Source: Terriglobia bacterium (GTDB lineage: Bacteria; Acidobacteriota; Terriglobia; Terriglobales; Acidobacteriaceae). Taken from it: a stretch of DNA of 64,000 nt. The notes under the pieces were generated by a model that was not told where the DNA came from, ran no database searches, and was given only the letters and a program-made list of their open reading frames with translations. The stretch is taken from NCBI GenBank assembly GCA_020073015.1, contig JAIQFZ010000009.1, positions 73 to 64,072 on the forward strand, written 5' to 3'. The position numbers and the translations under genes were made by a program. Every line of letters starts with the position of its first letter. The first letter of the stretch is position 1. Shown one piece after another: positions 1 through 29,425 of the stretch.

Positions 1-2456
1 GTTGGCAACGTCAGTCCGCTGAGCGAGAAAGCCGCTCCAGTGACATTGGCCTGGGATATGGTGACCGCGGATCCGCCGGTGTTGGTCACCGTCTCCGATT
101 TACTGCTGCTATTGCCCACCTGAACGCTGCCGAAAGAGAGACTGGTCGGATTTGCGGAAAGGGTTCCGGGTGTTACTCCTGTTCCGGACAGCGGAATGCT
201 CAGATTCGGATTCGCCCCATTGGAAGTGATGCTGATGCTGCCACTGGCTGCGCCGCTCGCGGTGGGAGCAAACAGCACGGTGAACGACGTGCTCTGTCCG
301 GCGTTCAAAGTAACCGGCACGGTTAAGCCACTCAGACTGAACCCGCTGCCACTGGCCGTTGCCGCGGAGATGGTCAGACTGCTTCCGCCGGAGTTCGTGA
401 GTGTTCCCGAGAGCGATTTCGAGCTTCCGGTCTGCACGGTGCCGAAACTGAAGCTGGACGGATTCGGCGAAATCTGGCCCGGCGTGATGCCCGTGCCCGA
501 GAGTGCGATCGTCAGGTTGGAATCGGAGGCATTGGAAGTGATGCTCACGTTTCCACTGGCCGCGCCGCTTGTAGTGGGTGCAAACAGGACGGTGAAGGAT
601 GTGCTCTGTCCGGCGTTCAAAGTGAGCGGTACGGTCAGGCCACTCATACTGAACCCGGTGCCGCTGACTGATGCGGCTGAAATCGTGACCGCGGATCCGC
701 CTGTGTTGGTCACCGTCTCTGACTTGCTGCTGCTAGTGCCCACCTGAACGCTGCCGAAAGAGAGACTGGACGGATTTGCGGAAAGGGTTCCGGGTGTTAC
801 TCCTGTTCCGGACAGCGGAATGCTCAGATTCGGATTCGCTCCATTGGAAGTGATGCTGATGCTGCCACTGGCTGCGCCGGCAGTGGTAGGAGCAAACAGT
901 ACGGTGAACGACGTGCTCTGTCCCGCATTCAAAGTAACCGGCACGGTTAAGCCACTCAGACTGAACCCGCTGCCACTGGCGGTTGCCGCGGAAATGGTGA
1001 CCGCGGTTCCGCCAGAATTTGTGAGTGTTCCCGAAAGCGATTTCGAGCTTCCGGTCTGCACGGTACCGAAACTGAAGCTGGAGGGGCTGGGCGAAAGCTG
1101 ACCTTGTGCGACGCCTGTCCCGGAGAGGGGCACCGAAAGAGTCGCGTTGCTGGCGTTCGAGTTGATCGTTAACGTGCCGCTGGCCGCGCCCGCCGCGGTG
1201 GGCGCAAAGATGGCACTAAACGTGGTTGATTGTCCCGCGTTGAGAGTCAGCGGCAAGTTTGGACCCGTGAAGCTGAATCCACTTCCGGATGCCGCGGCGC
1301 TCGAGACTGTGACGGTTGCACCGCCTGTGTTCGTGACGGATACGGAGACGGTCTTGTTGCTGCCCACCGTTACATTGCCAAAACTCGCACTGCTCGGATT
1401 CGCGGTCAGAGAGCCAGCCGCAAGTCCCGTACCGGAAAGCGCGATGTTGAGCGGTGAAGCGGGCGCGTCCGACACGATCGCCAGCGTGCCCGTGGCCGAG
1501 CCGGCGGTGGTGGGAGCGAAGCCCACGTTGAACGTGACGCTTTGGTTCGCCGCGAGCGTGACGGGGACAGACAAGCCGCTGACTGAAAATCCGGTGCCGC
1601 TCACGTTGGCTTGCGAGATGGTGACCGAACTCCCGCCGGTGTTGGTCAAGGTTTCGGACTGGCTGGAGCTGTTGCCGACTTGAACGCTGCCGAACGCCAG
1701 GCTGGAAGGGTTGGGGGTCAGTTGTCCGGCGGTAACGCCTGTTCCCGAGATTGGCAGGACCACGGTGCTGGAGTCGCTGTTGGTAAACGTAACCTTGCCG
1801 GTGAAGCTTCCAGCGCCAGTGGGAGCAAACGTCACGCTAAGCGAGGCGGTGCCGCCCGCGTGCAGCGTCAGCGGCAGGGACAGGTTGCTGGTCGAGAACC
1901 CTGTGCCACTCAAGGTGGCCTGGTTGACGATGATATCTGTTCCACCAGTATTGGAAAGAGTCACGCTGTTCGTCTGACTCGACCCGACCTTGATATTGCC
2001 GAAGGCGACGGACGATGGGTTGAGCGACAGTTGTCCAGAAGCGGCTGATGTGCCGGAGGCGGTCAGCGACACGAGAACCTCAGAACTTGCCCCCAAGAGC
2101 GAGAGGGTGCGCGACAGATTCTCAGGCGTTGATGGCTGAAACTGTACTTTGAAGGGAACGCTCGCCCCAGCCCCCAGAACCAGCGGGGGCGTAATCCCGA
2201 GAACCTGCAAGTCTGAACTCGAACCGGCGATCGAACTGACGGTGACGGCAGAGGCCGTGTTGTTCGACAGCGTGTTTTGCAGAGCCTTGCTGCTGCCAAC
2301 GGCAACGGTTCCAAAGTTGAGGCTGGAAGTCGCCACCACGACACTGCCGCCGCCCGGACCTCCGGCTGACAAGATTTGGCAACCAGCAAAGAATAGCGAG
2401 CACACGACGGTGAGAAACAGGCCGAGCCAGACGCCACGCAACTGATGAGCGTTCAC
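1..2456 (-). CDS. Large repetitive cell-surface lipoprotein, 3'-truncated by the window edge. Built of tandem ~100-aa beta-sandwich repeats of the choice-of-anchor-D / HYDIN-ASH-like type.
   Basis: Absent from the ORF track because no stop codon lies in the window. My reverse translation starts at GTG 2456, with GAGG 5 nt upstream. It gives VNAHQLRGVWLGLFLTVVCSLFFAGC (signal peptide plus lipobox Cys), then at least 8 repeats of the pattern LSFGSVQVG-S-S---VTNTGG--VTIS-A--SG-GFS-SGL--P-TLNAGQS--F-V-FAPT--G-ASG---I-SN----I-LSGTG. The frame was checked at positions 74, 1106 and 1685 and stays open to position 1. Plus-strand ORFs 196-2048 are its antisense shadows. Confidence 0.8.
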   Translation of the reverse strand, partial: MNAHQLRGVWLGLFLTVVCSLFFAGCQILSAGGPGGGSVVVATSSLNFGTVAVGSSKALQNTLSNNTASAVTVSSIAGSSSDLQVLGITPPLVLGAGASVPFKVQFQPSTPENLSRTLSLLGASSEVLVSLTASGTSAASGQLSLNPSSVAFGNIKVGSSQTNSVTLSNTGGTDIIVNQATLSGTGFSTSNLSLPLTLHAGGTASLSVTFAPTGAGSFTGKVTFTNSDSSTVVLPISGTGVTAGQLTPNPSSLAFGSVQVGNSSSQSETLTNTGGSSVTISQANVSGTGFSVSGLSVPVTLAANQSVTFNVGFAPTTAGSATGTLAIVSDAPASPLNIALSGTGLAAGSLTANPSSASFGNVTVGSNKTVSVSVTNTGGATVTVSSAAASGSGFSFTGPNLPLTLNAGQSTTFSAIFAPTAAGAASGTLTINSNASNATLSVPLSGTGVAQGQLSPSPSSFSFGTVQTGSSKSLSGTLTNSGGTAVTISAATASGSGFSLSGLTVPVTLNAGQSTSFTVLFAPTTAGAASGSISITSNGANPNLSIPLSGTGVTPGTLSANPSSLSFGSVQVGTSSSKSETVTNTGGSAVTISAASVSGTGFSMSGLTVPLTLNAGQSTSFTVLFAPTTSGAASGNVSITSNASDSNLTIALSGTGITPGQISPNPSSFSFGTVQTGSSKSLSGTLTNSGGSSLTISAATASGSGFSLSGLTVPVTLNAGQSTSFTVLFAPTASGAASGSISITSNGANPNLSIPLSGTGVTPGTLSANPTSLSFGSVQVGNSSSKSETVTNTGGSAVTISQANVTGAAFSLSGLTLP
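58..1100 (-). repeat. Tandem duplication inside the lipoprotein gene. The unit is 624 bp (two repeat domains); 58-476 and 682-1100 are near-identical.
   Basis: Direct comparison: 121-480 and 745-1100 align base for base at a 624-bp offset with only scattered mismatches. Older, diverged copies continue to about 2050. Confidence 0.85.
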
Positions 2457-2922
2457 AATGACCTCTGTGAGCCGTAGCATCGCTACGGCGGGGGATTCGG
2501 GTCACCGGAGCTCTGGCTGGCGGCTCCGGCAAAGAACAGTTTGGCGCCGGGGGGCAGGAAGTAATAGATTGCGAAAGGCTTAGCGGCTTATGGCATCCGG
2601 CCAAGGGGCGCTCGGTCCAAATCGCCGGGAGGGTATGAACTGGAGTACTGTAAAGTCCGCTCGTGTAGGGGTATGGAGACGGGCACGAGAAACTGGACGC
2701 AATGTGCAATACATTGCATATCACTGGGGCCCAGACTGGATTTTTCAGGATCTGCGGTTCTTGAGGCAAATCACAGGCCCGGCTATCTACTTGGGCGTCT
2801 TTGAGTTGTTGTCGGAGTGGTTTTTCTAAAGAGTGGGTTAATATAAGGCAGCTGAATGAGCGGGTATGGCAGGGTGCATGCACCCAATACTAGGAGCTCT
2901 AGGGCAAGGGAATTGCGTACAT

Positions 2923-3300
2923 ATGAGACATTTTCTGATTCTTGGATTCTCCCTCGCGGTTCTGACCGCGGCCAGCGCAGCGCAGGACAAGCAACCCCAA
3001 GTTAAACATTTTCACGACGGGACCAAGTCGGCAAAAAGTGTAGTGGTTGCCAAGACGCCGACTTCTACCGGCGCGGCGGCCAACCTGCGCCGGCTGGAAC
3101 AACAGTCAACCAAATTGTCGGCACCACAGAGAGTCAAGCGACCTGCGGGAGCAGCAGCCTTGCTGAAGACCGAAAGGGAAAAGCGGACTCCGCCGATCCG
3201 CATCTCTGGACCAAGCATCGGTGCCAAGGGTCCGGGTACGACCAATCAGGGTACAAACCCGTACCGCGGGCGCCTGCGTCAAAAGGGCTCCCATCACTAA
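2923..3300 (+). CDS. Small secreted hypothetical protein
   Basis: ATG 2923 lies inside ORF 2866..3300. MRHFLILGFSLAVLTAASAAQ looks like a Sec signal peptide, followed by a basic low-complexity tail. No family recognised. Confidence 0.4.
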   Translation: MRHFLILGFSLAVLTAASAAQDKQPQVKHFHDGTKSAKSVVVAKTPTSTGAAANLRRLEQQSTKLSAPQRVKRPAGAAALLKTEREKRTPPIRISGPSIGAKGPGTTNQGTNPYRGRLRQKGSHH

Positions 3301-3675
3301 GAATCAGCTCAAGCATGGGTGAGGGCCCCGAGGTCACGGATTCGACTTTGGATCCTTCGCGACCTTTGGTCGAGGATGTCGACTCGCAGCAATCCCTCCA
3401 AGCGAAAGCAATAAAGGCTGTGGCGCGCAACTTCCACGCCCGGGATTCCACTGCTCACAGAACCGGGCACTGCTCCAGGCACCTCTCTCCTCTCTCCGTC
3501 GGAGGTCCTCCCCGATTCCGTGCTCAATCGCTAGTCGATTTATGTTATTGACGGGCGCACGAGGCCGTGTATCAGCATTGTTTTGAGTTGTTTTGACGCT
3601 CTTTATCACCGCTTCCTGTGATCGGCGTCACCGATTGGCCGTAGGAGTGGGCCCTAGTCTCGACCGCGGCAAACA

Positions 3676-4551
3676 GTGATCTCCCAGTGGAACGGCCAGT
3701 TTTCTTGCTTTGACCTCGTAGCCAGGACCAACAGTCACGCTCGAAGCGTTGTTCCGGTTGGCGACATCGAGATCGGCGGCGATGATTTCATCGTCATGGC
3801 GGGTCCCTGCGCGGTCGAATCCGAGCGGCAACTCCTGCAAACGGCAGAGGCGGTGGCGGACGCCGGCGCCCGCATTCTGCGCGGGGGAGCCTACAAGCCT
3901 CGCTCTTCCCCCTATTCCTTCCAAGGCTTGGGCGTCGAAGGCCTGAAGATCCTGCGCAAGGCGCGAGAAATCACCGGGCTTGCGATCGTCACGGAAGTGA
4001 TGAGCGAGGAAGATGTCGAGGTGATCGCCGAATACGCCGACCTCATGCAGGTCGGCACGCGCAGCATGGAAAATTACGCACTGCTGGAAGCTCTGGGGCG
4101 ATGTGGGCGGCCGGTGCTGTTGAAGCGCGGCATGACCGCGACGCTGGAAGAGTTCCTTCGCTCGGCGCAGGTCATTGCCATGAATGGCAACCCGCAGATC
4201 GTTCTGTGCGAACGTGGAATCCGCACCTTTGAAACGGCAACCCGAAACACGCTCGACATTGCGGCCGTGCCGGTACTGAAGACGGTATCGCACCTTCCCG
4301 TGATCGTCGATCCCAGCCATGCCGCAGGCGTCCGGTGCCTGGTTCCCATCCTGTCGCGCGCGGCCGTCGCGGTGGGCGCGGACGGGCTGCTGGTGGAAGT
4401 GCACCCCACGCCTGACAAGGCTCTGAGTGACGGCGAGCAATCGATCAACTTCCGCGAGTTCCGCGACATGATGGACGACTTGCAGCCGTATCTGGACCTG
4501 CGGGACAAGCGAACTCAACCCCGCCTGGTGGCGGTGGGAGGAACGGACTAG
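3676..4551 (+). CDS. aroF: 3-deoxy-7-phosphoheptulonate (DAHP) synthase, type I-beta, short form without a regulatory domain
   Basis: ORF 3676..4551 with a GTG start. Contains [27 protein letters not shown] and VDPSHA motifs typical of the DAHPS/KDO8PS I-beta family. Confidence 0.85.
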
Positions 4552-5984
4552 TGCGGAGGCCGGCCATCGTAGGGCGGCTGCTTCTGCTTGCAGTCACCGC
4601 GCTTACTCTGTTTGCGATGGCGGTCGCTTTGGCTCCTCGCCAGTCTGCCGCCTCGTCGAGCACGGATTCTTCGCTCCTCTATACCGTGGCAGGTGGCTAC
4701 GACCCACTCGCCTGGATTCACGGTAGCGATCGATTCAGCGGCGGCGCCACCGTGGTGGTCAAAGACTCTCGCGGCCGCCATTCGCTGGTCGCGGATTTCG
4801 CAGCCTCGGCCGATCCTGCGGTTTCTTTTGACGGAGAGAACGCTCTGTTCGCCGGTAAGCAGAAGCCGCAGGACCGCTGGCAGATTTGGGAGATCTCTCT
4901 GGCAGGAGGCAAGCCCCGGCGCATCACCTCGTGTGTCGACGATTGCATCCGTTCCTTCTACCTGCCGGAGAATCGCATCGTTTATGCGAAGAAAGTCGAC
5001 GGCCGGTTTGTGGTGGAAGCGGCAACGCTGGTGGATGGCAAGGCGACCGCGCCCGTTGTCCGCCTGACCTACGGGCCGGGCAATTCTCTGCCCACCGATG
5101 TTCTTCGCGACGGACGCATTCTGTTTGAGGCCACGTTCCCGTTCGGATCTTCCTCCGACCCGAGCGCTACGCCCGAACTCTATACCGTGTATTCCGATGG
5201 CAGCGGCGTCGAGTCCTACCGCTGCGATCACGGCAAGGCGCGCCATGCGGGCAAGCAGATGAGTTCCGGCGATGTTGTGTTCGCGTCGGAGTCGGGCTTG
5301 GCGCGATTTACTTCTGCATTGGCGAAGGAAGCAGCCATTGCCGCCCCTGCCGGAGAATATGCGGGCGACCTTGCCGAGACCGCTGCCGGCGACTGGCTAG
5401 TCTCCTGGCGGCCGGATACCAGGAGCAGGTTTCAACTGATGCTGTGGACGGATCGTGTAGGGCGGACACTCCTGTCCGCCCATCAGGGCGCTCTGCGTCC
5501 GGTGGTCGTCGAGCCAAACGCAAACGTAATCCAACCGACTCCGATCGTTGCGCGTACTGCACCGAAACGGCACCCCTCGGCGCTGCATGACTGGTCCTAT
5601 GCCAATCTGCTCTGCCTGAACGCCTACACATCGAAATACAAGTTCGCCGCGGGATCGATCCATTCGGTACGGCTCTATGCCCGCGACGACGCCGGCCAGG
5701 CCAAGTTGCTGGGAACTGCGCCCGTGGAGACCGACGGCTCGTTCTTCCTCCAGGTGCCCGCCGATCAGCCTCTGCAATTCGAACTGGTGGACGGCTCCGG
5801 CAAGACTCTGAAGCGGGAGGCAGGGTGGTTCTGGATTCGCCGGGGCGAGCAGCGCGTCTGCGTTGGCTGTCACGCCGGTCCTGAGACGGCGCCCGAGAAT
5901 GCTGTCCCGATGATTCTCCAGAGGTCGACAACTCCGGCGGATATGACGGGCGCAACCGACCAGCACCCCAGCGGAGGCCACTAA
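4551..5984 (+). CDS. Secreted TolB/PD40-like beta-propeller protein with a C-terminal single c-type heme module. Resembles the hydrazine synthase alpha-subunit middle-domain family.
   Basis: GTG 4551 overlaps the aroF stop (TAGTG). The N-terminus MRRPAIVGRLLLLAVTALTLFAMAVALA is signal-peptide-like. PD40-like segments are present (DPAVSFDGENALFAGK...WQIWEISLAGGKPRRIT). The C-terminal part reads NLLCLNAYTSKY...FFLQVPADQPLQFELVDGSGKTLKREAGWFWIRRGEQRVCVGCH, with the CXXCH at 5859-5873. Confidence 0.65.
   Translation: MRRPAIVGRLLLLAVTALTLFAMAVALAPRQSAASSSTDSSLLYTVAGGYDPLAWIHGSDRFSGGATVVVKDSRGRHSLVADFAASADPAVSFDGENALFAGKQKPQDRWQIWEISLAGGKPRRITSCVDDCIRSFYLPENRIVYAKKVDGRFVVEAATLVDGKATAPVVRLTYGPGNSLPTDVLRDGRILFEATFPFGSSSDPSATPELYTVYSDGSGVESYRCDHGKARHAGKQMSSGDVVFASESGLARFTSALAKEAAIAAPAGEYAGDLAETAAGDWLVSWRPDTRSRFQLMLWTDRVGRTLLSAHQGALRPVVVEPNANVIQPTPIVARTAPKRHPSALHDWSYANLLCLNAYTSKYKFAAGSIHSVRLYARDDAGQAKLLGTAPVETDGSFFLQVPADQPLQFELVDGSGKTLKREAGWFWIRRGEQRVCVGCHAGPETAPENAVPMILQRSTTPADMTGATDQHPSGGH
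5455..5481 (+). repeat. REP family A hairpin (GGGCGGACA-CTCC-TGTCCGCCC) embedded in-frame in a CDS
   Basis: The 27-mer GTGTAGGGCGGACACTCCTGTCCGCCC is identical to the reverse complement of 18353-18379. Confidence 0.85.
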
Positions 5985-6034
5985 TGTCGCGACTTGGCAA
6001 TTCCCTGGCAGCCGCAAAGCGGCGAAAGAATGCA

Positions 6035-6056
6035 ACCCACGGCTTAAGCCGTGGGT
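6035..6056. repeat. Perfect 22-nt palindrome (REP-like)
   Basis: ACCCACGGC-TTAA-GCCGTGGGT, with a second small hairpin GCCGC-AAA-GCGGC at 6011-6023. Confidence 0.7.
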
Positions 6057-6067
6057 ATACGGGGGAA

Positions 6068-7756
6068 ATGAACGAGCCCCAGCGGGGCGAAAGAAGACTG
6101 CACGAGATGCGAGTTCCAGAGCGCCCATACCTCGGTGTCATCGTGCTCACCCTCGCCTTCGTGTTGCTCTCCACGGCTGTGCTTGCGCAAACCCCCGCCC
6201 CCGCCATTCGCTTCGAAGACGCTACGGCGAAGTCCGGCATTCAATTCACCCACAGCTTCGGCGCCCGGCAACTCGGTTCCTTGCTGGAAAGCACGGGCGG
6301 CGGCTGTGTCTGGTTTGATTTCAACAACGACGGCCTGCCCGATCTTTACGTCGCCAGCGGCAAACCGCTCGAAGGGGGAATTCATCCTTACCCGCTGAAG
6401 CAGCCGCCCGCGACACCTCCGCACAATCATCTTTATAAGAACAACGGCGACGGCACCTTCACCGACGTCACCGACCAGGCCGGCGTCGCGGCCAACATCT
6501 ATGGGATGGCGGCCATCGCTGCCGACTTCGACAACGATGGTTTCACCGATCTGTTCGTCACCGGCTATGGTCGCGCGATTCTCTATCGCAACAAAGGCGA
6601 TGGAACGTTCGAAGACGTCACCGCCAAGGCTGGCATCAAGGTGGACGGCTGGTCCATCAGTTCCGCCTGGCTCGACTACGATCGCGACGGCTGCGTGGAC
6701 TTGTTCGTCGGGCGGTATGTGAAGTTCGATCCGAAATACCGCAACTACTATGCGGCTGACAATTATCCCGGCCCGCTCGACTACGCGGCCGACACAAACC
6801 GTCTCTTCCGCAACAACTGCAACGGGACTTTTACCGATGTGACGGATAAATCCGGGATCGGCGCTTACAAAGGCCGCACCATGGGCGTCACCGCCGCGGA
6901 CTTTGACGGCGACGGCTATCCCGACATCTACGTGGCCAACGACAAGACGGAGAACTTCCTGTTCCACAACAAGCATGACGGCACGTTTGAAGAAATCGCG
7001 GCCGATCTGGGTGTGGCATACGGCCAGAACGGAGAGAACACTTCCGCCATGGGCCCGGTGTTTGCCGACATCGATGGCGATGGCCGAATGGACCTGTGGG
7101 TTACCGATTCGAAATACAACCGCCTGATGCGCAATACCGGACAGAACGGGTTCGAGGACATCGGCCCGAGTTCGGGAATTTCGCAAGCAACGGCGCAATA
7201 CACGAGTTGGGGAACGGGGATCTATGATTTCGATAACGATGGCTGGCTCGACATCCTTGTTTTTCACGGTGGCCTGATCCACATGGTTCCGCAGGAGCAG
7301 TCGCTGTTTCGCGGACTCGGCAATGGCAAGTTTGCCGACGTCTCGCGCGAGGCGGGCTCCGTGCTCGATGTGAAGACGGTGTCGCGTGGCGCCTGTTTTG
7401 CCGATTATGACAATGATGGCAAGACTGATGCTTTCGTCGTGAATCTGGGCGCACCCGCGACCCTGCTGCACAACACTTCACAAAACAACCATCACTGGCT
7501 GACCGTGCGCTTGCAGGGAAAAAAGAGCAATCGCGACGGGATCGGCGCGCACCTGGAGTTGCAGGCCGGGGGGCGTAAACCGGTGGCCGAACGCGTCGCT
7601 GGTTCGGGCTATTTGTCGCAGGACGATGGCCGCGTTCATTTCGGTTTGGGCAGCGCGGCGAAGGCCGACAAACTCACCATCCGCTGGCCGAGCGGACAAG
7701 AGCAGGTTCTGGAGAATCTGGCAGTGGATCGTGTGCTCACGGTGCAGGAACCATGA
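6068..7756 (+). CDS. CRTAC1-family protein (FG-GAP/VCBS repeats plus an ASPIC/UnbV C-terminal domain), secreted
   Basis: Repeated FDFNNDGLPDLYV / ADFDNDGFTDLFV / DYDRDGCVDLFV / ADFDGDGYPDIYV / ADIDGDGRMDLWV / YDFDNDGWLDILV motifs. The C-terminus reads NHHWLTVRLQGKKSNRDGIGAHLEL...GSGYLSQDDGRVHFGLG. The ORF opens at 5984 (TAATG overlap), but 6011-6056 is occupied by REP-like palindromes, so ATG 6068 or ATG 6107 (MRVPERPYLGVIVLTLAFVLLSTAVLAQ signal peptide) is more likely. Confidence 0.8.
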   Translation: MNEPQRGERRLHEMRVPERPYLGVIVLTLAFVLLSTAVLAQTPAPAIRFEDATAKSGIQFTHSFGARQLGSLLESTGGGCVWFDFNNDGLPDLYVASGKPLEGGIHPYPLKQPPATPPHNHLYKNNGDGTFTDVTDQAGVAANIYGMAAIAADFDNDGFTDLFVTGYGRAILYRNKGDGTFEDVTAKAGIKVDGWSISSAWLDYDRDGCVDLFVGRYVKFDPKYRNYYAADNYPGPLDYAADTNRLFRNNCNGTFTDVTDKSGIGAYKGRTMGVTAADFDGDGYPDIYVANDKTENFLFHNKHDGTFEEIAADLGVAYGQNGENTSAMGPVFADIDGDGRMDLWVTDSKYNRLMRNTGQNGFEDIGPSSGISQATAQYTSWGTGIYDFDNDGWLDILVFHGGLIHMVPQEQSLFRGLGNGKFADVSREAGSVLDVKTVSRGACFADYDNDGKTDAFVVNLGAPATLLHNTSQNNHHWLTVRLQGKKSNRDGIGAHLELQAGGRKPVAERVAGSGYLSQDDGRVHFGLGSAAKADKLTIRWPSGQEQVLENLAVDRVLTVQEP

Positions 7757-7773
7757 CGGTGATGGATTTCTGA

Positions 7774-9666
7774 ATGCGAAGCATGGCAACAATCACGGCG
7801 AAAGCGAAACTCGCGGCAAAGATTGCCCCGATTGCCGCTCTGCTTCTTTTTGCGGCGCTTGCGCGGCCCGCCGCGAATCCCGCCCGTTCTGGTATCAGCG
7901 AGCGTTACCTGTCTCCCATTGAAATGGTGCTGTCTCCGGATGGGCGCCAGCTGTACGTCGTCTGCCAGGGCAGCAACGAACTGCGCGTGGTGGATCTGGA
8001 ATCGGGCAAGGTCGTGTCGACCGTGCCCCTCGGCCGCGCGCCCCGCGGACTCACGATGTCGCCGGACAGCGCGCAAATCTATGTGACGAACTCCACCGAC
8101 GATACGGTGTCGGTGATCGACGCCGCCACGATGAGAGTGACGCGCACACTCGCCACCGGATTCGAACCCGCCGGCGTTGTAGCCGACCGGGCGGGCGAGA
8201 CTCTCTACGTTGCCAACCGGCTCAGTGGCGACATTTCGGTCATCAATGTGAAGACCGGCCAGGAAATCAAACGCCTTCTCGCCGGTCGCGGCGCCAGCTA
8301 CCTGGCACTCTCGCCGGATGGCAAGTTCGTTTACGGCACGCACATTTATCCGAAGCTGGGAGCATTTCGGAAGCAGCCGAACTCAGAAATCACCGTCATC
8401 GATACCGCGAGCCAGACCGTGGTCGAACGCAAACGCTTGCACAACGTAGCGGGAGTCTTTCACGTGGCGTTTTCGGCCGACGGCAAGTTGGGAGTGACCA
8501 CACAGCTTCGTCCCAAGAACCTGATTCCGCTGGCGCATGTCGAACACGGGTGGGTGTTCGGCAATTCGCTCACGTTGTTCGGCGAGGACGTCGGCGGAAC
8601 GGTCCAGGTCCCGATCGATGAACTCGACCGCTATTACTCTCTGCCCTGGGGCGTCATCATCACGCCCGATAAGTCGAAGATGTTCGTAACCACCGCCGCA
8701 TCGGAGAGCGTAACGGTCATCGATGTTCCCAAGCTGCTCAACTATGTGCGGGCGCGCCGCGAACCCTTTGTCAACGATCTCTCGGCGTCCGCCAACTATG
8801 TGACGGCCAGAATTCCCGTCGGCCACAATCCGCGCGGCGTCCTGCTGTCGAAAGATGCCAAGCGTCTCTACGTGGCCAACCGGCTCGACGACAACATCGC
8901 GGTGATCGATACAGCCGCGAATCGGGTCGTTTCTACCATCGATCTTGGTGGTCCGAAGACGATCAATCCTCTGCGCCGTGGCGAGCGCATCTTCTTCACC
9001 GCTGATTACGCGTTCCAGGGCCACTTCGGGTGTTCGAATTGCCATCTGGATGCAACCATCGACGGCCTGGAATGGGACCTTGAGCCGGACGGCTTCGGCA
9101 AAGATATTGTCGATAATCGCTCGCTCGAAGCTCTTTCCGGTACCGAGCCCTTCAAGTGGAACGGCGGCAATCCCGACCTGCCTACCGAATGCGGCCCACG
9201 CGTGGAAAAGTATTTCTTCCGCTCGCAGAGTTACGGCGATCACGAACTCACCGACCTGGTGACGTTTGTCTACTCGCTGCCGTATCGGCCAAATCGTTAC
9301 CGGCTCCCGAATAGCGAACTGTCGCCCGCTCAGGAACGTGGCAAAGCGATCTTCGAGAGGACGACCTACAAGAATGGCAAGCCGATTCCTCAGGCCAACC
9401 AGTGTGGGTACTGCCACAGCGGCCCGAAGTTTACGAACCGGCAGCAACTCGACGTCGGCACCGGCAAACCGACAGACCGCTCGCCGCTGGTCGACGTGCC
9501 ACACCTTCCCAATGTCGCCTATTCCGCGCCCTACCTGCACGACGGATCGGCGCAGTCGCTCGAAGAAATCTGGACCGTCTACAACCCGAAAGACCAGCAT
9601 GGAGTGAGCAACGATCTGACCAAAGACGAATTGAACGATTTGATCGAGTACCTGAAAACGTTATGA
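7774..9666 (+). CDS. Secreted YVTN-type beta-propeller fused to a di-heme cytochrome c peroxidase/MauG-like domain
   Basis: Signal peptide KIAPIAALLLFAALARPAA. Propeller repeats are present (QLYVVCQGSNELRVVD, QIYVTNSTDDTVSVID, TLYVANRLSGDISVIN, RLYVANRLDDNIAVID). Two CXXCH motifs: CSNCH at 9031-9045 and CGYCH at 9403-9417. CCP-like motifs CGYCHSGPKFTN and VPHLPNVAYSAPYLHDGS are also present. Confidence 0.8.
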   Translation: MRSMATITAKAKLAAKIAPIAALLLFAALARPAANPARSGISERYLSPIEMVLSPDGRQLYVVCQGSNELRVVDLESGKVVSTVPLGRAPRGLTMSPDSAQIYVTNSTDDTVSVIDAATMRVTRTLATGFEPAGVVADRAGETLYVANRLSGDISVINVKTGQEIKRLLAGRGASYLALSPDGKFVYGTHIYPKLGAFRKQPNSEITVIDTASQTVVERKRLHNVAGVFHVAFSADGKLGVTTQLRPKNLIPLAHVEHGWVFGNSLTLFGEDVGGTVQVPIDELDRYYSLPWGVIITPDKSKMFVTTAASESVTVIDVPKLLNYVRARREPFVNDLSASANYVTARIPVGHNPRGVLLSKDAKRLYVANRLDDNIAVIDTAANRVVSTIDLGGPKTINPLRRGERIFFTADYAFQGHFGCSNCHLDATIDGLEWDLEPDGFGKDIVDNRSLEALSGTEPFKWNGGNPDLPTECGPRVEKYFFRSQSYGDHELTDLVTFVYSLPYRPNRYRLPNSELSPAQERGKAIFERTTYKNGKPIPQANQCGYCHSGPKFTNRQQLDVGTGKPTDRSPLVDVPHLPNVAYSAPYLHDGSAQSLEEIWTVYNPKDQHGVSNDLTKDELNDLIEYLKTL

Positions 9667-10796
9667 AGCTGAAAATCTCGATTTCCGCGCTCGCTGTGTT
9701 GCTCGCGATTCCGCTGAGTAGCGCGGCCCAGGACATGCCGCGCTTCCGGTGGGAGAACTTCACCACCGCCAACGGCCTGCCCGACAATCACGTGTTTTGC
9801 GTTCTCGTCGATGGCAACCGCGTTTGGGCCGGCACTGAGAACGGTCTCGGCCTGTACGAGAACGGAACGTGGAAAATATTCCGCCCGGCCACCCGTGACG
9901 ATCAGCAGGGGTTGACGCATCAGGCTGTGCTTTCCCTTGCAGTGGATAAGCGCACCGGCGATGTGTGGGCGGGCACCATGGGAGGACTGAACCGCATCTC
10001 CGCGGGACGCATTGATAACTTCACCCAACTCAACTCCGGTCTAAGCAACGACATCGTGTACGGAGTCGGAGTGCAGGGAGATTTTGTTTGGACCGCCACC
10101 GCCGCTGGCGCCAGCCGCTTGGATACCCGCACAGGCCAGTGGGCGCTGTTCAACGAGCGCAATACGCCTATGTTTGAGATTTGGACCTACGCAGTGAGTC
10201 CGGCAGCGGACAAAGTTTATTACGCGGTGTGGGGCGGGGGCGTGCTCGAATACGATGTCGCCACCGAACGCTGGAAAGACTACAACGACCCCGACGGCGA
10301 AACCGAGATGGTGCTGATGAAGGATCAGGGTCTGATCCACGAGATCACCACCTCGGTCAGCTACGTGGACAAGATTCTCTGGGTCGCCACGTACTTCGGC
10401 GCCAGCCGCTACGATGGCCGTTACTGGCACAACTTCCTGCAGAAGGACAGCGGCCTGCCCAGCAACTTCCTGAATCAGATCAAGGGCGTCGATGGCAACC
10501 GCGCCTGGTTCTCCACCGACAAGGGGTTGGCCTACTTCGACGGCACAAACTGGGCCGTCTACCGGCCTGCGCTCGATACCCATAAGCCCGAAATGCTGGT
10601 ACGCGATGCGGAAGGCAAGGTGACTGCCATCCCGGTGGATAGCGCTCCCGCGCACAACTACATTCTCGGTGTCGACTTTCAGGGCGATGACCTCTGGGTC
10701 GCGACCGCCAAGGGATTGAGCCACGGAATTCGACAGCGTGGTTCGAACGAAACAGCAAAGGTGTCACAGGAACAAAAAGCAATCGGGAACAAGTAG
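9663..10796 (+). CDS. Secreted Reg_prop (two-component-regulator propeller) repeat protein
   Basis: ATG 9663 overlaps the upstream stop (ATGA). The signal peptide is MKLKISISALAVLLAIPLSSAAQ. Repeats of the NGLPDNHVFCVLVDGNRVWAGTENGL / DVWAGTMGGL / FVWTATAAGASRLD type are present. The longer ORF from 9402 is an out-of-frame overlap with the previous gene. Confidence 0.75.
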   Translation: MKLKISISALAVLLAIPLSSAAQDMPRFRWENFTTANGLPDNHVFCVLVDGNRVWAGTENGLGLYENGTWKIFRPATRDDQQGLTHQAVLSLAVDKRTGDVWAGTMGGLNRISAGRIDNFTQLNSGLSNDIVYGVGVQGDFVWTATAAGASRLDTRTGQWALFNERNTPMFEIWTYAVSPAADKVYYAVWGGGVLEYDVATERWKDYNDPDGETEMVLMKDQGLIHEITTSVSYVDKILWVATYFGASRYDGRYWHNFLQKDSGLPSNFLNQIKGVDGNRAWFSTDKGLAYFDGTNWAVYRPALDTHKPEMLVRDAEGKVTAIPVDSAPAHNYILGVDFQGDDLWVATAKGLSHGIRQRGSNETAKVSQEQKAIGNK

Positions 10797-10814
10797 AGAC
10801 CTAAGGAGCCATTT

Positions 10815-11297
10815 ATGAATGTTGCGGACTTGCTCGCAGAAGTGACCACGGGGCCAGTTGTGAAGCGGGCCATTACCAACCACAGCGTATTGAACGAAGC
10901 TTACGCTTACGGCAGCGCTTTCTCCCGCGGCATGCGCATCGATCTGAAAGGAGTCACCATCCTGCTGATCTCGGGCACCGCCAGCATCGACGAACAGGGC
11001 AACACTGTTCACGTCGGCGATCTTCGCGCTCAACTCCGCCGCACCTTCGACAACATCACGGGACTGCTCGCTTCCGAGGGTGCGACCTGGCACGATATTG
11101 TTCGCACCACCTGCTACCTTCGCGACATCGAGCGCGATTACAAGGAATTCAATGAAGAACGCGCGGCGTTCTACAAAGAGCAGGGACTCGATCCGCTCCC
11201 GGCTTCAACTGGCATCCAGGCCATCCTCTGCCGGCCGGATCTGCTGGTCGAGATTGAAGCGATCGCCATGTTCCGTCGCGAAACGCCCGCGGAGTAG
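10815..11297 (+). CDS. RidA/YjgF/L-PSP family (Rid) protein
   Basis: 160-aa ORF. Contains LLISGTASIDEQGNTV, TTCYLRDI and VEIEAIA motifs characteristic of the YjgF/RidA fold. Confidence 0.75.
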   Translation: MNVADLLAEVTTGPVVKRAITNHSVLNEAYAYGSAFSRGMRIDLKGVTILLISGTASIDEQGNTVHVGDLRAQLRRTFDNITGLLASEGATWHDIVRTTCYLRDIERDYKEFNEERAAFYKEQGLDPLPASTGIQAILCRPDLLVEIEAIAMFRRETPAE

Positions 11298-11301
11298 AAC
11301 C

Positions 11302-13227
11302 ATGCCCAGCATCCCGCGCCGCTTGCTTGTATCGACGATCGTTGCCGTGCTCGTGTCCACGGCGCTGGCCCAGACGCCTGCGCCCTGCGCCTGCGGCACC
11401 AATCCTCCAGGTCCGCCGCCGGCCCGCTCGCTGAAACCGTACACCGGTGCGCCCGAGGACCTGCGTCCGTTTTCAAAGTTCACCACTCCGTACTACGAGC
11501 ACTATCAGGACCTGATCGAATACAACGGCGCCGCGCGCGACATTCCAGACCCGGACCTCAAGGATCTCAATGAGATTCGTATTGGCTTTCTGGCCCCGCT
11601 CTACGACCACCCCGACCAGGTACTCGGGAATCGCATGCTGAATGGCGCAAAGCTGGCGATGGAAGAGGCCAATGCCGCCGGCGGTTACTGCGGTAAGCCT
11701 TTCCGCCTCGTGACTCACAACGACTATGACAACTGGCAGAACAGCAGCGCTGCCGTTGCGGGCGTTTCAAAGGATTCCGCCATCTGGGGCGCTGCCTCGA
11801 ACGACGCTGTCAGGATGATCTACGACGACAAGGTTTGGGCCATGTTCGGCTCCATTAGCTCCGAATCCACCCACATCGCCCTTCGCCTCACGCTGAAAGC
11901 CGAAACGCCCCTCGTGAATAGCGCCTCCACCGATCCCACCATCCCTGAGACCCTCATTCCCTGGTACTTCACCGACCTTCAGGATGATCGTGTACAGGGC
12001 TACACGCTCGCAAGGCACATCTATACGGAACTCGGCCTGAAGCGAGTGGCCCTGCTGCGCGTGAACGACCGATATGGCCGTTTTGGCGTCTTAAAGTTTC
12101 GCGATGCCTCGCGCCGCCTCGGTCACCCGGTTGTGATCGAGCAGAAGTTCATGCGGGGCGACACGGACTTTCGCCGCCAGCTCCAGGTCATACAGGACTC
12201 GCGCGTCGATGCGATCGTGCTTTGGACCGACATCGGCCCCGCCGCGGCCATCCTGCAGCAGATGCAGGAACTCGGGATGAAGCAGCGCGTGTTCGGTAGC
12301 CACCGCACCATCGGCGATGAACTCATCAAGCTCGCCGGACCCGCTGCCGAAGGCTTCGAAGCCGTGTTCCCCTACGATCCCACGCGCTCTGACGCGCGCT
12401 GGCTCGACTTCAACGCCCGCTACCAGGCGCGCTTCCACGAGAAGCCCGATCACTTCGCCTCGCTTGCCTACGATGCGATGCAAATTCTGCTCAATGCGAT
12501 TTGCCGCGCCGGTCTGAATCGCGGCCGCATCCGCGACGCGCTCACCGGCGTCACCAGCTACAAGGGTGTAACCGGCGACATGGTGTTCGACCCGAACTGC
12601 AAGAACATCGCGCCGCTGTACCTTGCGAAGGTGCATCACGGGAACATCGAGTATCGCCGCATTACCATGGAAAAAAGCACCAGCGGGACCCCCTACGCGC
12701 GTGTGGGCGAGGATGGAGTTCAGTACGCCGGACCGTCGCTGCCCGATCAGAAAAGCGGCGAGATTCCCATCGGTATTTTCGGACCCCACGCGGACGAGAT
12801 CGTGCGTTCGGTCGAAGTCATGCGTTTGATTACTGAAATGAGGGGCAAGGGCCAGCCCATTGCACTGATCCCGATTGCCTCCCAACTTTCCTGGGGCAGG
12901 GCGTCGAACGAACTCATCAAAGCGGTTTATCAGGACCACGCCCTGGCGCTAATCGCACTGGACCGCGCATCGAGCCACCTCGCGGAACAAATCGCGGTGA
13001 AATCGTTCCTGCCCGTGATGGCAATCTCTTCCGACCGAGCGCTCACGTCGACCAATATTCCCTGGATCTTCCGGCTTCCGGCAAACACTCCACTCGATCA
13101 GGTGCTGCGCTGCCTTGGCAATTCCATTGAACGCGCGGGACCCAACCGGGAGAGGGTCCGCGATCTTTTAGCGTCGGGTCAAGCCGTAGCGGGCTTGAGT
13201 TTTACATCGACCGGCGAACTTCGCTGA
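11302..13227 (+). CDS. Periplasmic amino-acid (LivK-type, PBP1) substrate-binding protein with an extra C-terminal partial PBP1-like module
   Basis: ATG 11302 gives MPSIPRRLLVSTIVAVLVSTALAQ (signal peptide). IRIGFLAPLY...GNRMLNGAKLAMEEANAAGGYCGKPFRLVTHND is typical of branched-chain amino-acid binding proteins. About 190 extra residues follow position ~12660. The ORF-track start at 11080 overlaps the rid gene. Confidence 0.75.
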   Translation: MPSIPRRLLVSTIVAVLVSTALAQTPAPCACGTNPPGPPPARSLKPYTGAPEDLRPFSKFTTPYYEHYQDLIEYNGAARDIPDPDLKDLNEIRIGFLAPLYDHPDQVLGNRMLNGAKLAMEEANAAGGYCGKPFRLVTHNDYDNWQNSSAAVAGVSKDSAIWGAASNDAVRMIYDDKVWAMFGSISSESTHIALRLTLKAETPLVNSASTDPTIPETLIPWYFTDLQDDRVQGYTLARHIYTELGLKRVALLRVNDRYGRFGVLKFRDASRRLGHPVVIEQKFMRGDTDFRRQLQVIQDSRVDAIVLWTDIGPAAAILQQMQELGMKQRVFGSHRTIGDELIKLAGPAAEGFEAVFPYDPTRSDARWLDFNARYQARFHEKPDHFASLAYDAMQILLNAICRAGLNRGRIRDALTGVTSYKGVTGDMVFDPNCKNIAPLYLAKVHHGNIEYRRITMEKSTSGTPYARVGEDGVQYAGPSLPDQKSGEIPIGIFGPHADEIVRSVEVMRLITEMRGKGQPIALIPIASQLSWGRASNELIKAVYQDHALALIALDRASSHLAEQIAVKSFLPVMAISSDRALTSTNIPWIFRLPANTPLDQVLRCLGNSIERAGPNRERVRDLLASGQAVAGLSFTSTGELR

Positions 13228-13373: not shown

Positions 13374-14357
13374 GTGACCCCAAACCTCGGCAAAGAACTC
13401 CTTTACCTCTCTCAAGCCGACGTCGCCGCCTGCGGCCTGACCATGCTCGAGATCATCGCGGCCCTCGAATCCATGTTTCGCGAAAAAGGCGAAGGCCGCG
13501 TCGAGATGCCCCCGAAAATCGGCGTCCACACTATGCCCGACGCCTTCCTCCATGCCATGCCCGCGTCCATTCCGGCTCAAAGAGCTGTCGGAGTGAAATG
13601 GGTGGGCGGTTATCCCTCCAACGACGAGCGCGGCCTGCCTTACATCACGGGTTTGCTCATCCTCAACGACCCGGAAACCGGCGTCCCCATCGCGCTCATG
13701 GATGGCACTTGGATCACCGCGCAGCGCACGGGTGCGGCCACCGCGGTGGCCGCCAAGTACCTGGCGCGTCCCGACTCAACCACCGTCGGCATACTAGGCT
13801 GCGGCGTGCAGGGCCACAGCAATCTCGAGGCCCTGAAGACGGTGTTCCCGTTGAAAAAAGTGTTTGCCTACGATACGCACTGCGACCGGGCCGCCCGCTA
13901 CGCACAGGAAATGAGCAAGCAACTCGAAATCGAAGTTATCCCCGTCGCCGATCCCAAACAGGCAGTCGTCCAGAGCGACATGGTCGTTACGGCCGGCCCC
14001 ATTCTGCGCCAGCCCCACGCCACCATCCAGCCCGGATGGCTTGCCCAAGGCGCCTTCGCCTCGCTTGTCGACTTCGATTCCTACTGGCACCCGGACGCTC
14101 TTCACGAGGCCAGTAAGTTCACAACCGACGATGTACCCCAACTCCACCACTACCGCGACATTGGCTACTTCCAGAACATCCCGCCCATCCACGCCGACCT
14201 CGGAGAACTCGTCACCGCCCGCAAGCCCGGCCGCCAATCTCCCGACGAACGCACCATCGCCTGCAACCTCGGCCTCGCCCTCGACGATATCGCCGTCGCG
14301 CCCCTGATCTACGCGCGCGCTCTGGAGATGCGCATTGGGACTTGGCTACCCCTCTGA
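13374..14357 (+). CDS. Ornithine cyclodeaminase / mu-crystallin family protein
   Basis: 327-aa ORF with a GTG start. Contains GVKWVGGYPSN, WITAQRTGAATAVAAKYLAR and a Rossmann GILGCGVQG motif, typical of the OCD/ketimine reductase family. Confidence 0.8.
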   Translation: MTPNLGKELLYLSQADVAACGLTMLEIIAALESMFREKGEGRVEMPPKIGVHTMPDAFLHAMPASIPAQRAVGVKWVGGYPSNDERGLPYITGLLILNDPETGVPIALMDGTWITAQRTGAATAVAAKYLARPDSTTVGILGCGVQGHSNLEALKTVFPLKKVFAYDTHCDRAARYAQEMSKQLEIEVIPVADPKQAVVQSDMVVTAGPILRQPHATIQPGWLAQGAFASLVDFDSYWHPDALHEASKFTTDDVPQLHHYRDIGYFQNIPPIHADLGELVTARKPGRQSPDERTIACNLGLALDDIAVAPLIYARALEMRIGTWLPL

Positions 14358-28488: not shown

Positions 28489-28525
28489 CTTGTATGAGTC
28501 CGATCTGCCGGGCTGCGCCCGGTCG

Positions 28526-29257
28526 TTACTTCATTACGATATTTTCCGACGAGTCCGGAGGGTGATACGGAACCTTCAGGAATCCATACATGCTGGCTGC
28601 GCCGATGGACACCAGGCCAAGCGCCAACAACAGGCAAACATAGCCAAAGCGGCGGCGCGCCTTCTCGCCGGTGGTAATGCCCCACTTGGCGGCGAACAGC
28701 CACAGCCCGTAGCAGAAGTGCCAGGAAGCGGCGATGATGCCGACCGCGTAGAAAGCGATCATCCACGGGTTCTGGAATTCTCCCTGCACCTTGACGAACG
28801 CGAGATCCGGACGCGTAGGCAGGTGCCAGCCAGTGAAGCGCAGGTAATAAGTATGCTGCGCAATGTAGACAAGGGCGATGATGCCGGTCCAACGCTGGGC
28901 CGTGTAGAGCCAGTTGCCCGTCCAGGGATAGTCGCCGACGTTGCTATCGCCGCGCCACCAAATGACGATCCCGTAGGTAGCGTGATAGAGAATCGGAATC
29001 CAGATGCCGAACAACTCGAGTCCGACTACGAACGGCAGGCTGTTCAGAAACGCGACTTGCTTGCCATAGGCCTCCGCGCCCTTGAAGGCCTCCATGTTCG
29101 AGATGAAGTGTTCGAGAAGAAAGAGTCCGATGGGAACGATGCCAGTGAGGGAATGCAAACGGCGCAGCAGGAACGAGTAACCTTCACCGGCGCGCAGGGG
29201 AGCGACGCCGGGCTTGATCTTTGGAACTGGAGCGACAGAACTGGCTGATGACGCCAC
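28526..29257 (-). CDS. sdhC: Succinate dehydrogenase cytochrome b subunit (b558, single-subunit anchor type)
   Basis: Five hydrophobic helices with conserved His residues. GTG 29257 lies 8 nt after AAGGAG. The ORF-track start at 29425 reads through a REP element (MWRGHSCPR...). Confidence 0.75.
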   Translation of the reverse strand: MASSASSVAPVPKIKPGVAPLRAGEGYSFLLRRLHSLTGIVPIGLFLLEHFISNMEAFKGAEAYGKQVAFLNSLPFVVGLELFGIWIPILYHATYGIVIWWRGDSNVGDYPWTGNWLYTAQRWTGIIALVYIAQHTYYLRFTGWHLPTRPDLAFVKVQGEFQNPWMIAFYAVGIIAASWHFCYGLWLFAAKWGITTGEKARRRFGYVCLLLALGLVSIGAASMYGFLKVPYHPPDSSENIVMK

Positions 29258-29346
29258 GATGACAGCTCCTTGCGTGGTCGGATGTGAAAACTTTCCATTA
29301 TCAGTGTGCACGGCGGCATGCGTCAAGCGAAGTAGCGCCGGCAAGC

Positions 29347-29425
29347 GTGTAGCGCGGACACTCCCGTCCGCGCCCGCATGCAGTGCGAGTGTGCCGACAC
29401 GCGGACAAGAGTGTCCGCGCCACAC
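29347..29425 (+). repeat. REP family A, full two-hairpin element (~79 bp)
   Basis: GTGTAGCGCGGACACTCCCGTCCGCGCC...spacer...GACACGCGGACAAGAGTGTCCGCGCCACAC. It lies upstream of sdhC. Confidence 0.85.

Follow-up and report, generated by a model that had tools for sequence, protein, structure and literature searches.

The DNA examined here is a 64 kb window of a Terriglobia metagenome-assembled genome (MAG), and positions are window coordinates unless another contig is named. Between 3676 and 13227, this window carries seven genes on the plus strand, all in the same direction. Two of them, referred to as gene 1 and gene 3, encode true but distant homologues of the subunits of hydrazine synthase (HZS), in which catalytic residues specific to that enzyme have been lost. 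The locus is probably an acidobacterial member of the non-anammox HZS-homologue clusters, with the architecture described as clade II by Hagglund et al. 2025 (Genome Biol Evol, PMC12758564). Its products probably form a periplasmic two-site heme redox complex that does not make hydrazine, a reading that we favour with good, if incomplete, confidence.

Homology of genes 1 and 3 to hydrazine synthase

Gene 3 (7774–9666, plus strand) encodes a predicted secreted fusion protein, in which an HzsB-like seven-bladed YVTN propeller (residues ~45–382) precedes an HzsC-like di-heme domain (residues ~400–630). Its best specific matches in NCBIfam are hydrazine_BC (E=1e-62), hydrazine_beta (E=2.5e-52), and hydrazine_gamma (E=6e-22). 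Among solved structures, residues 47–382 match HzsB (5c2v_B) over the whole HzsB length with E=1.5e-46, and the whole protein matches 5c2v_C with E=6e-18. The C-terminal 230 residues match HzsC across both heme motifs with E=3e-19, the runner-up being MbnH with 5e-8. The AlphaFold2 model of the protein (pLDDT 85, pTM 0.86) also has HzsB (5c2v_B) as its best Foldseek match (E=1e-32, TM-score 0.89, root-mean-square deviation 2.9 Å). The Foldseek list consists mostly of propellers, and the gamma-like domain was therefore assessed by sequence alignment. Pfam CCP_MauG (PF03150), the family of the cytochrome c peroxidases (CCP) and MauG, is matched with 25.4 bits against a gathering score of 25.6, and only over positions 22–87 of the 149 positions of the profile.

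The two heme motifs of gene 3 can be assigned by alignment to those of HzsC. The first of them, CSNCH (9031–9045, C420–H424), aligns with CASCH and would be the equivalent of the catalytic heme gamma-I, while the second, CGYCH (9403–9417, C544–H548), aligns with CLECH and would correspond to the electron-entry heme gamma-II. The residues C420, C423, H424, K461, W462, C544, C547, H548, H589, and H609 are invariant in the gene 3 family (75/75). Trp462 (codon 9157–9159) stands at the position of HzsC His144, where gene 3 reads FKW against FRH in HzsC, and this is also the position of the inter-heme Trp of CCP and MauG. Cys473 (codon 9190–9192; ECGPR against VCGRD in HzsC) is a Cys in 55/75 family members and an Asp in the other 20/75. 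As judged from the alignment, it is the equivalent of gamma-Cys165, so the third thioether to heme gamma-I is predicted to be kept. His609 (codon 9598–9600) is a candidate distal ligand; an invariant His at the place of the Met/Tyr distal ligand of CCP and MauG suggests that the second heme has bis-His ligation, as in HZS.

Other residues of HZS have no clear equivalent in gene 3. The gamma-Asp168, proposed to be the proton donor for the reduction of nitric oxide (NO) in HZS (PMC12607021), has no counterpart: gene 3 has Val or Glu at its position, and the family as a whole shows Phe, Ala, or Ser there, with no Asp. The loop region around Glu253 of the cofactor-free HZS beta subunit (blade 6, 245–260) does align, with variable columns in which no acidic residue is conserved; gene 3 has G-E-D one position off.

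Gene 1 (4551–5984, plus strand) encodes a predicted secreted HzsA-like protein, which holds a PD40/TolB-type propeller, an HZS_alpha middle domain, and one c-heme motif. The match to Pfam HZS_alpha (E=9e-17, 61.8 bits) lies well above the gathering score of 26.6, hydrazine_alpha is the top specific match in NCBIfam, and HzsA (5c2v_A) is the sole significant match in a sequence search of the PDB (E=6e-11), covering the propeller and the surroundings of the heme motif. When the AlphaFold model of the protein, which served for fold ranking only, was used in a fold search, HzsA was again the best match (E=1e-13), with TolB propellers five orders of magnitude weaker (3e-8). The protein comprises 477 residues and ends 36 residues beyond its single CXXCH (C437–H441), compared with the 782 residues of the HzsA chain in the PDB, and the C-terminal cytochrome domain, which in HzsA carries the bis-His heme alpha-II, is absent from it. 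In HZS, heme alpha-II lies beyond electron-transfer distance of the other hemes and has been assigned no role (PMC12607021), so that losing it would not necessarily alter the reaction.

The heme motif of gene 1, CVGCH (5859–5873), aligns with CSGCH of HzsA and would be the equivalent of heme alpha-I; the next residues are AGPETAPEN. Heme alpha-I of HZS is ligated by Tyr591, and the His of its CXXCH motif, His587, is turned to a zinc shared with Cys303 (PMC12607021; main text of PMC12758564). The stretch AGPETAPENAVPM, directly after CVGCH in gene 1, has no Tyr at the alpha-Tyr591 position, and the same is true of all seven aligned alpha homologues. The gene 1 heme therefore probably has ordinary His ligation. 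With the Tyr ligand lost, the alpha-like heme should be open to reduction, which heme alpha-I of HZS is not. A YRCDH motif (residues 223–227; 5217–5231), invariant in 50 acidobacterial HzsA-like proteins and absent from alpha homologues resembling clade III, which is described below, may bind a metal or belong to the heme pocket. By position, rather than by alignment to HzsA, Cys225 of this motif lies a few residues from the expected place of HzsA Cys303; a fragment search and a profile search gave no alignment across that region of HzsA.

The reference features and residue numbers of HZS used in this comparison were taken from PMC12758564 and PMC12607021. Like HzsABC (EC 1.7.2.7) of 'Ca. Kuenenia stuttgartiensis' (PDB 5C2V), the window proteins are predicted to be secreted, and their models and sequences point to the same folds: the alpha propeller plus middle domain, the seven-bladed beta propeller, and the gamma di-heme domain. 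They keep the motifs of hemes alpha-I, gamma-I, and gamma-II, together with the third Cys of heme gamma-I, and the fusion of beta and gamma is shared with HZS of 'Ca. Scalindua'. Despite these similarities, clear differences exist. The window locus lacks alpha-Tyr591, the heme alpha-II domain, and gamma-Asp168, gamma-His144 is replaced by Trp, and no acidic residue is conserved at beta-Glu253 in the window family. The alpha gene lies upstream here and downstream in HZS, and the window locus adds FG-GAP/ASPIC and Reg_prop partner genes. Identity in the Foldseek alignments is just 29% for beta and 16–17% for alpha, and the NCBIfam equivalog cut-offs are missed for alpha (59 against 800 bits), the BC fusion (212 against 1250), beta (178 against 560), and gamma (78 against 625). 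With CCP, MauG, and MbnH, on the other hand, gene 3 shares two equivalently placed CXXCH motifs, a PY(L/F)HDG motif, and the inter-heme Trp. It differs from them in the additional heme Cys, the fused YVTN propeller, the score just under the Pfam threshold, the far better match to HzsC, and the invariant His609, which the alignment places where a Met or Tyr distal ligand is expected.

Much of this had been anticipated in a first-pass annotation made from the letters of the window. The resemblance that it saw between gene 1 and the HZS alpha middle domain corresponds to real homology, and its description of gene 3 as a YVTN propeller followed by a di-heme domain agrees with the HzsB and HzsC matches given above. 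The idea that genes 1 and 3 mirror HzsA plus HzsBC is sustained by the 5C2V chains being their best solved-structure matches, and the coordinates given for the three CXXCH motifs were exact. The Pfam matches that it expected were obtained for HZS_alpha, UnbV_ASPIC, FG-GAP, and Reg_prop, but CCP_MauG was found only just under its gathering score.

Published non-anammox clusters and the clade II architecture

Clusters of this kind have been described before. Dalcin Martins et al. 2023 (PMC10732223) found hzsA-like genes beside fused hzsBC-like genes in Phycisphaerae UBA1845 MAGs, and proposed a broader HZS-like family. The GTDB survey of Hagglund et al. (PMC12758564) distinguishes, according to its main text, four clades of co-localised HZS homologues, which are judged not to be true hydrazine synthases. 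In that account, clades I and II share the gene order alpha, FG-GAP/CRTAC1, beta-gamma; the alpha proteins of clades II and III have neither heme alpha-II nor the final ~100 residues; and additional hemes in the beta-gamma protein number eight in clade I, one in clade III, and none in clade II. All clades are described as lacking alpha-Tyr591, a Trp at the gamma-His144 position is reported for clades I–III, and binding-protein genes are placed downstream of the clusters.

In every point stated there, the window locus agrees with clade II, an assignment made by described features and not by a joint tree. The order is alpha homologue, FG-GAP/CRTAC1, and fused beta-gamma. Gene 1 has one CXXCH, neither heme alpha-II nor the C-terminal ~100 residues, and no alpha-Tyr591. 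Gene 3 has exactly two CXXCH motifs, both C-terminal, and Trp in place of gamma-His144, and a binding-protein gene is found downstream. A difference concerns the equivalent of gamma-Cys165, which the main text of the survey reports for clade I only and which is present here in a protein of the clade II type.

The main text of PMC12758564 names neither Terriglobia nor Acidobacteriota; the hit tables of the paper include beta-gamma homologues from Sulfotelmatobacter, Granulicella, and Terracidiphilus, among them those of the cultured Granulicella sp. L46 and Terracidiphilus gaucii, a listing that covers the beta-gamma protein and not the whole cluster. As partners, a term search of the same main text finds FG-GAP and ABC-transporter binding-protein genes only, and neither a Reg_prop propeller, nor a Rid protein without its catalytic Arg, nor a DAHP (3-deoxy-D-arabino-heptulosonate 7-phosphate) synthase. 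A literature search brought up no further paper on these homologues beyond PMC12758564 and PMC10732223. Since clusters of alpha, FG-GAP/CRTAC1, and fused beta-gamma genes were already published, the window locus adds a member to a known, functionally uncharacterised kind. The first-pass annotation therefore overrated the novelty of the complex.

Organization, partners, and distribution of the gene cluster

Genes 1 and 3 are accompanied by five further genes. The probable first gene of the unit is aroF-like (3676–4551, plus strand) and encodes a cytoplasmic DAHP synthase of type I-beta. It is followed by genes 1 to 4 and, downstream, by a gene for a cytoplasmic Rid/YjgF-family protein (10815–11297, plus strand) and one for a secreted LivJ-type (Peripla_BP_6) solute-binding protein with N- and C-terminal extensions (11302–13227, plus strand). 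The genes are tightly packed: the aroF stop TAG (4549–4551) shares one nucleotide with the gene 1 start GTG (4551), the gene 1 stop TAA (5982–5984) overlaps an ATG at 5984, genes 3 and 4 are joined by an ATGA overlap (9663–9666), and gene 4 is separated by 18 nt from the Rid-family gene, which is separated by 4 nt from the binding-protein gene. Between the gene 2 stop and the ATG of gene 3 at 7774 lie 17 nt; gene callers favour ATG 7783 for gene 3, and its database copy (P0001) begins at M4. Among the real genes of the 64 kb window, CXXCH occurs only in genes 1 and 3 (three motifs). Signal-peptide-like N-termini were recognised by a simple heuristic in genes 1, 3, and 4 and in the downstream binding protein, and in gene 2 from M42 only.

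Gene 2 encodes a secreted FG-GAP repeat/UnbV_ASPIC (CRTAC1-like) propeller, with Pfam matches to FG-GAP_3 (E=2.5e-61) and UnbV_ASPIC (E=2.7e-21). Its maximal open reading frame starts at ATG 5984, which is preceded by GGAGG, and its signal peptide, MRVPERPYLGVIVLTLAFVLLSTAVLA, is present only when translation starts at ATG 6107 (Met42). Within the intervening 123 nt (5984–6106), which separate the gene 1 stop from 6107, the opposite strand carries a full-length Acido-Lenti-1 RNA motif (Rfam RF01687), antisense to the operon (6010–6055, minus strand; 46/46 positions, 45.5 bits where the gathering score is 37). This motif overlaps a perfect 22-nt palindrome (6035–6056) and has a T-rich tail on the minus strand. 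Six related loci checked lack Acido-Lenti-1 at the orthologous place, which makes it look like a local insertion. The signal peptide found only from Met42, the length of the gene 2 orthologues (~546 residues), and the RNA motif within 5984–6106 indicate that the overlap of genes 1 and 2 at 5984 is probably an artefact of open reading frame extension and not a real junction, the true start of gene 2 being probably 6107 (gene 2 thus spanning 6107–7756, plus strand).

Gene 4 (9663–10796, plus strand) encodes a secreted Reg_prop beta-propeller. Apart from its Pfam assignment, it matches 4a2l, the propeller of a Bacteroides hybrid two-component sensor, with E=6e-26, and by sequence it resembles the periplasmic sensor domains of Bacteroides hybrid two-component systems.

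The flanking genes are equally well defined. With 373 bits for TIGR01361 (cut-off 268) and 420 bits for NF006421 (cut-off 335), the aroF product is, by its family profiles, a bona fide type I-beta DAHP synthase. The Rid protein matches Pfam Ribonuc_L-PSP (E=1.5e-19), and each of its NCBIfam matches stays under the cut-off. The catalytic Arg of RidA (Arg105 in E. coli numbering) is essential for deaminase activity. At its position, a Ser is found in 81/81 cluster-linked Rid homologues, and the protein of the window accordingly reads PAST (LPASTGI) where four RidA structures have PARS or PARV. These homologues are 60–69% identical even in distant lineages, a conservation above that of the heme proteins, and they may form a distinct Rid subfamily. 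In the binding protein, the Peripla_BP_6 domain (E=6e-48) covers residues 91–445 of 641, and the PDB entry 4gnr is matched with E=3e-30; the N-terminal extension of ~90 residues (CACG plus a Pro-rich stretch) and the C-terminal extension of ~195 residues have no Pfam match. Further PDB relatives of this protein (4ey3, 3tx6, and 3ukj) are binders of lignin-derived aromatic acids from Rhodopseudomonas palustris. No gene for an ABC permease or ATPase is found among the called genes adjoining the cluster, either in the window or in the distant loci described below.

The distribution of the family was examined by scanning a single genome for each GTDB species, with a 10-sequence gene 3 alignment as the query. 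A gene 3 relative is present in at least 530 species-level genomes. The best 80 loci are all from Acidobacteriota (Terriglobales, Bryobacterales, Acidiferrales, and Solibacteraceae), mostly from peat, fen, palsa, and soil MAGs. Within these 80 species loci, and counting only those with enough flank, the same order and strand are kept for gene 1 in 72/72, for gene 2 in 75/75, for gene 4 in 76/78, for the Rid gene in 72/76, and for the binding-protein gene in 67/69, so the order from gene 1 to the binding-protein gene is preserved in ~95–100% of the acidobacterial species genomes. This synteny is still seen where gene 3 is only 59% and gene 1 only 43% identical. Upstream of gene 1, aroF is found in 52/68 loci and is absent in those of the Bryobacterales type. 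The ornithine cyclodeaminase gene that follows the cluster in the window (13374–14354) is syntenic in no other locus.

A search of a representative protein library returned 2,687 clusters at E<=1e-30 to gene 3, many of them unrelated YVTN-repeat proteins; giant proteins of this type flooded the search, and single-stretch full-length matches alone were used. For the distant contexts, beta-gamma homologues were collected by a profile search, and the contigs encoding them were then inspected. In these contigs, whose source names include Chlorobiota (L090) and, through a cluster mate, Anaerolineales (L091), the beta-gamma protein is 40–48% identical to gene 3 (tblastn), and gene 4 homologues are 45–53% identical. 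Three loci (L087, L089, and L092) contain the full set of FG-GAP/ASPIC, HZS_alpha, beta-gamma, Reg_prop-like, Rid, and DAHP synthase genes with one or two Peripla_BP_6 genes. L088 and L090 lack the Rid and DAHP synthase genes, and the L091 contig stops just past the beta-gamma gene. The beta-gamma proteins of L087 and L089–L091 have three CXXCH motifs, and their clusters begin with the FG-GAP gene, as in clade III; that of L088 has ten, as in clade I. One or two separate binding-protein genes follow the distant clusters.

The DAHP synthases of the distant clusters (L087, 14191–15048; L089, 14134–14991; L092, 11871–12758, in the coordinates of those loci) are also of type I-beta, without a regulatory domain. 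Their position differs from cluster to cluster, which makes a chance neighbour unlikely. This recurrence hints at a functional tie to the shikimate pathway that current models leave without explanation. The non-acidobacterial clusters were further seen to contain large proteins of ~1,100–1,190 residues combining TPR, FG-GAP, and ASPIC domains (L087, 16432–19995; L089, 16649–19995; L090, 1–2567 and 14802–18353), and additional FG-GAP/ASPIC paralogues flank the HZS-like genes there. A link with nitrogen assimilation was considered and rejected: the glutamate synthase, PALP enzyme, and ammonium transporter genes seen upstream of the cluster in Sulfotelmatobacter occur only in 9–11 closely related loci of 92.

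With respect to this organization, the first-pass annotation fared unevenly. Its four packed, co-directional genes and the junctions at 4551, 7774, and 9663–9666 are as it had described them, genes 2 and 4 are indeed a CRTAC1/ASPIC-UnbV protein and a Reg_prop propeller according to Pfam, and the conservation of the neighbourhood that it proposed to examine holds in the 80 acidobacterial species genomes. The overlap at 5984 exists as a pair of codons, but as the start of gene 2 it is probably an artefact. The signal peptides proposed for all four products are found in genes 1, 3, and 4, and in gene 2 only if it begins at 6107 instead of 5984. The operon limits of 4551–10796 enclosed the four genes but were too narrow, the conserved unit extending from 3676 to 13227.

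Upstream of aroF, a region of ~1.2 kb without a called gene (2481–3675) separates it from a divergent gene; Rfam gives no match in this region, and no promoter of the sigma-70 type was seen in it. The sigma-70 promoter scan found no site, and terminator-like sites were uninformative. In two related loci (L059 and L007), a tRNA gene is located upstream of aroF. The divergent gene (2–2480, minus strand), which runs past the window start, encodes a large secreted protein with repeated Ig-like domains of the ASH/HYDIN/DUF1573 type (Cep192_D4, E=6e-90). Elsewhere in the window are genes for the flavoprotein and b558-type cytochrome b subunits of succinate dehydrogenase (26722–29425), and for malate/lactate dehydrogenase and isocitrate dehydrogenase (~18.4–20.9 kb). 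These dehydrogenases belong to ordinary central metabolism and give little information on the oxygen relations of the host.

Proposed mechanism, competing explanations, and significance

In the mechanism considered probable here, whose heme roles are borrowed from HZS biochemistry (PMC12607021), the four secreted propeller and heme proteins would form a periplasmic assembly that resembles HZS and contains three c-hemes. A soluble cytochrome would deliver electrons to the second heme of gene 3, ligated by His548 and probably by His609 as the distal ligand. From there they would travel by way of the invariant Trp462, as they do in CCP and MauG, and arrive at the first heme of this protein. The latter, ligated by His424 and probably held by a triple thioether through Cys473, might turn over a small ligand, for which analogy suggests candidates such as NO, hydroxylamine, and peroxide. 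The gene 1 heme, normally His-ligated, would serve as a second reaction or binding site, and the binding protein may deliver an amine-like or aromatic co-substrate. A more specific version of this scheme, in which the complex is a new enzyme of the nitrogen cycle, widespread in soil Acidobacteria and further phyla, is regarded as improbable; in it, the gamma-like heme would reduce NO to hydroxylamine, as that of HZS does, and the alpha-like heme would either convert hydroxylamine into ammonium that is then assimilated or condense it with an amine or amino acid supplied by the LivJ-type protein, so that an N–N bond would be made by organisms other than anammox bacteria.

Several observations weigh against the proposal of a periplasmic two-site redox complex. 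The DAHP synthase and the Rid protein are cytoplasmic and not accounted for by a simple periplasmic redox role, and binding proteins without transporter genes are left unexplained by it. No electron relay is apparent for the alpha-like heme, and the model of gene 1 is of low quality, with a pLDDT of 64 overall and below 35 beyond residue 428, around the heme site. The role of His609 as ligand of the second heme is inferred from its conservation and alignment. Finally, the main text of PMC12758564 describes the key residues of HZS as not conserved in the homologue clades, and states nothing beyond that.

The features that separate gene 3 from HzsC raise the question of whether its likeness to HZS reflects ancestry only. 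In that case, it would be an enzyme of the MauG/CCP type and not part of a two-site mechanism on small molecules: either a peroxidase or a protein-oxidising maturase using H2O2 or O2 to form a cross-link or quinone cofactor in a co-encoded propeller, an explanation that we consider unlikely. The invariant Trp462 between the hemes, as in CCP and MauG, would be in agreement with it, the main text of PMC12758564 giving His144 for HZS, and so would the absence of gamma-Asp168, the weak matches of gene 3 to CCP_MauG, MbnH, MauG, and di-heme peroxidases, and the strict co-conservation of three partner propeller proteins. However, HzsC is matched with E=3e-19, compared with 5e-8 or weaker for any CCP or MauG, and the score for Pfam CCP_MauG falls slightly below the gathering score. 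Moreover, the HZS-specific third heme Cys is retained, and an invariant His apparently takes the place of the Met/Tyr distal ligand, as would be expected for a bis-His heme such as gamma-II. The cytoplasmic members of the unit have also led us to consider a biosynthetic role linked to the shikimate pathway, in which DAHP synthase would increase the flux, the Rid protein would convert an intermediate, and the periplasmic heme, propeller, and binding proteins would oxidise, couple, or polymerise an aromatic product. The recurrence of DAHP synthase at varied positions in clusters of distant lineages, the loss of the deaminase Arg in every cluster-linked Rid homologue, and the aromatic acids bound by some PDB relatives of the binding protein are in line with this role. 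Nevertheless, the match of the Rid protein to FkbO/Hyg5 chorismatases (E=7e-10) amounts to 39 bits against a cut-off of 325 and reflects the generic YjgF fold only, none of the loci contains a further gene of the shikimate pathway or one whose product uses chorismate, and DAHP synthase, which could be a mere housekeeping copy, is missing from 16/68 acidobacterial loci and from L090. A shikimate-linked function therefore has a low probability.

The remaining explanations can be discarded with more certainty. A true hydrazine synthase, making hydrazine or performing a cryptic anammox-like reaction, might be suspected from the presence of all three subunit types in adjacent genes and from the kept gamma-Cys165. 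This reading is regarded as excluded, since the equivalog cut-offs are failed by a wide distance (59 against 800 and 212 against 1250 bits) and catalytic residues are missing (alpha-Tyr591, gamma-Asp168, and gamma-His144, the last replaced by Trp), together with the heme alpha-II domain. In addition, no other c-heme gene, such as those for an octaheme hydrazine dehydrogenase or hydroxylamine oxidoreductase, exists within the 64 kb window, and the main text of PMC12758564 reaches the same verdict for these clades. The caution of the first-pass annotation that the locus does not suggest anammox was hence well placed, as the catalytic signatures of HZS are missing. A fortuitous neighbourhood of unrelated secreted propeller and cytochrome genes, without any functional unit, has a negligible probability. 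Proteins with propellers and CXXCH motifs are common in Acidobacteria, and YVTN repeats alone give thousands of matches, but the synteny data refute this explanation: the order is kept almost throughout the 80 species genomes, even at the lowest identities cited above, the gene set recurs, reordered, in other lineages, and start and stop codons overlap or lie 4–26 nt apart.

Compared with the main texts of PMC12758564 and PMC10732223, what the window locus adds is the larger unit of 3676–13227, its near-universal synteny in Terriglobia, and the gamma-Cys165 equivalent in a protein of the clade II type. The Rid subfamily without the catalytic Arg, the recurrent DAHP synthase, and the corrected start of gene 2 with its antisense Acido-Lenti-1 motif are also new.

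HZS was long believed to stand alone, without relatives. The homologues outside anammox bacteria are now the only handle on the evolution of HZS chemistry. One type of them is encoded by an operon that hundreds of Acidobacteria from soil and peat carry as a standard, with tight conservation, and in it the heme proteins travel with fixed partners: a Reg_prop propeller, a Rid protein without the catalytic Arg, a LivJ-type binding protein, and, in many loci, a DAHP synthase. The existence of the family would no longer surprise a specialist, but it is abundant, tied to an iconic enzyme, and open to experiment. If its substrate were NO or hydroxylamine, these bacteria would hold an overlooked sink or transformation step in the nitrogen cycling of soils; if it were neither, the result would still define what the ancestor of HZS did.

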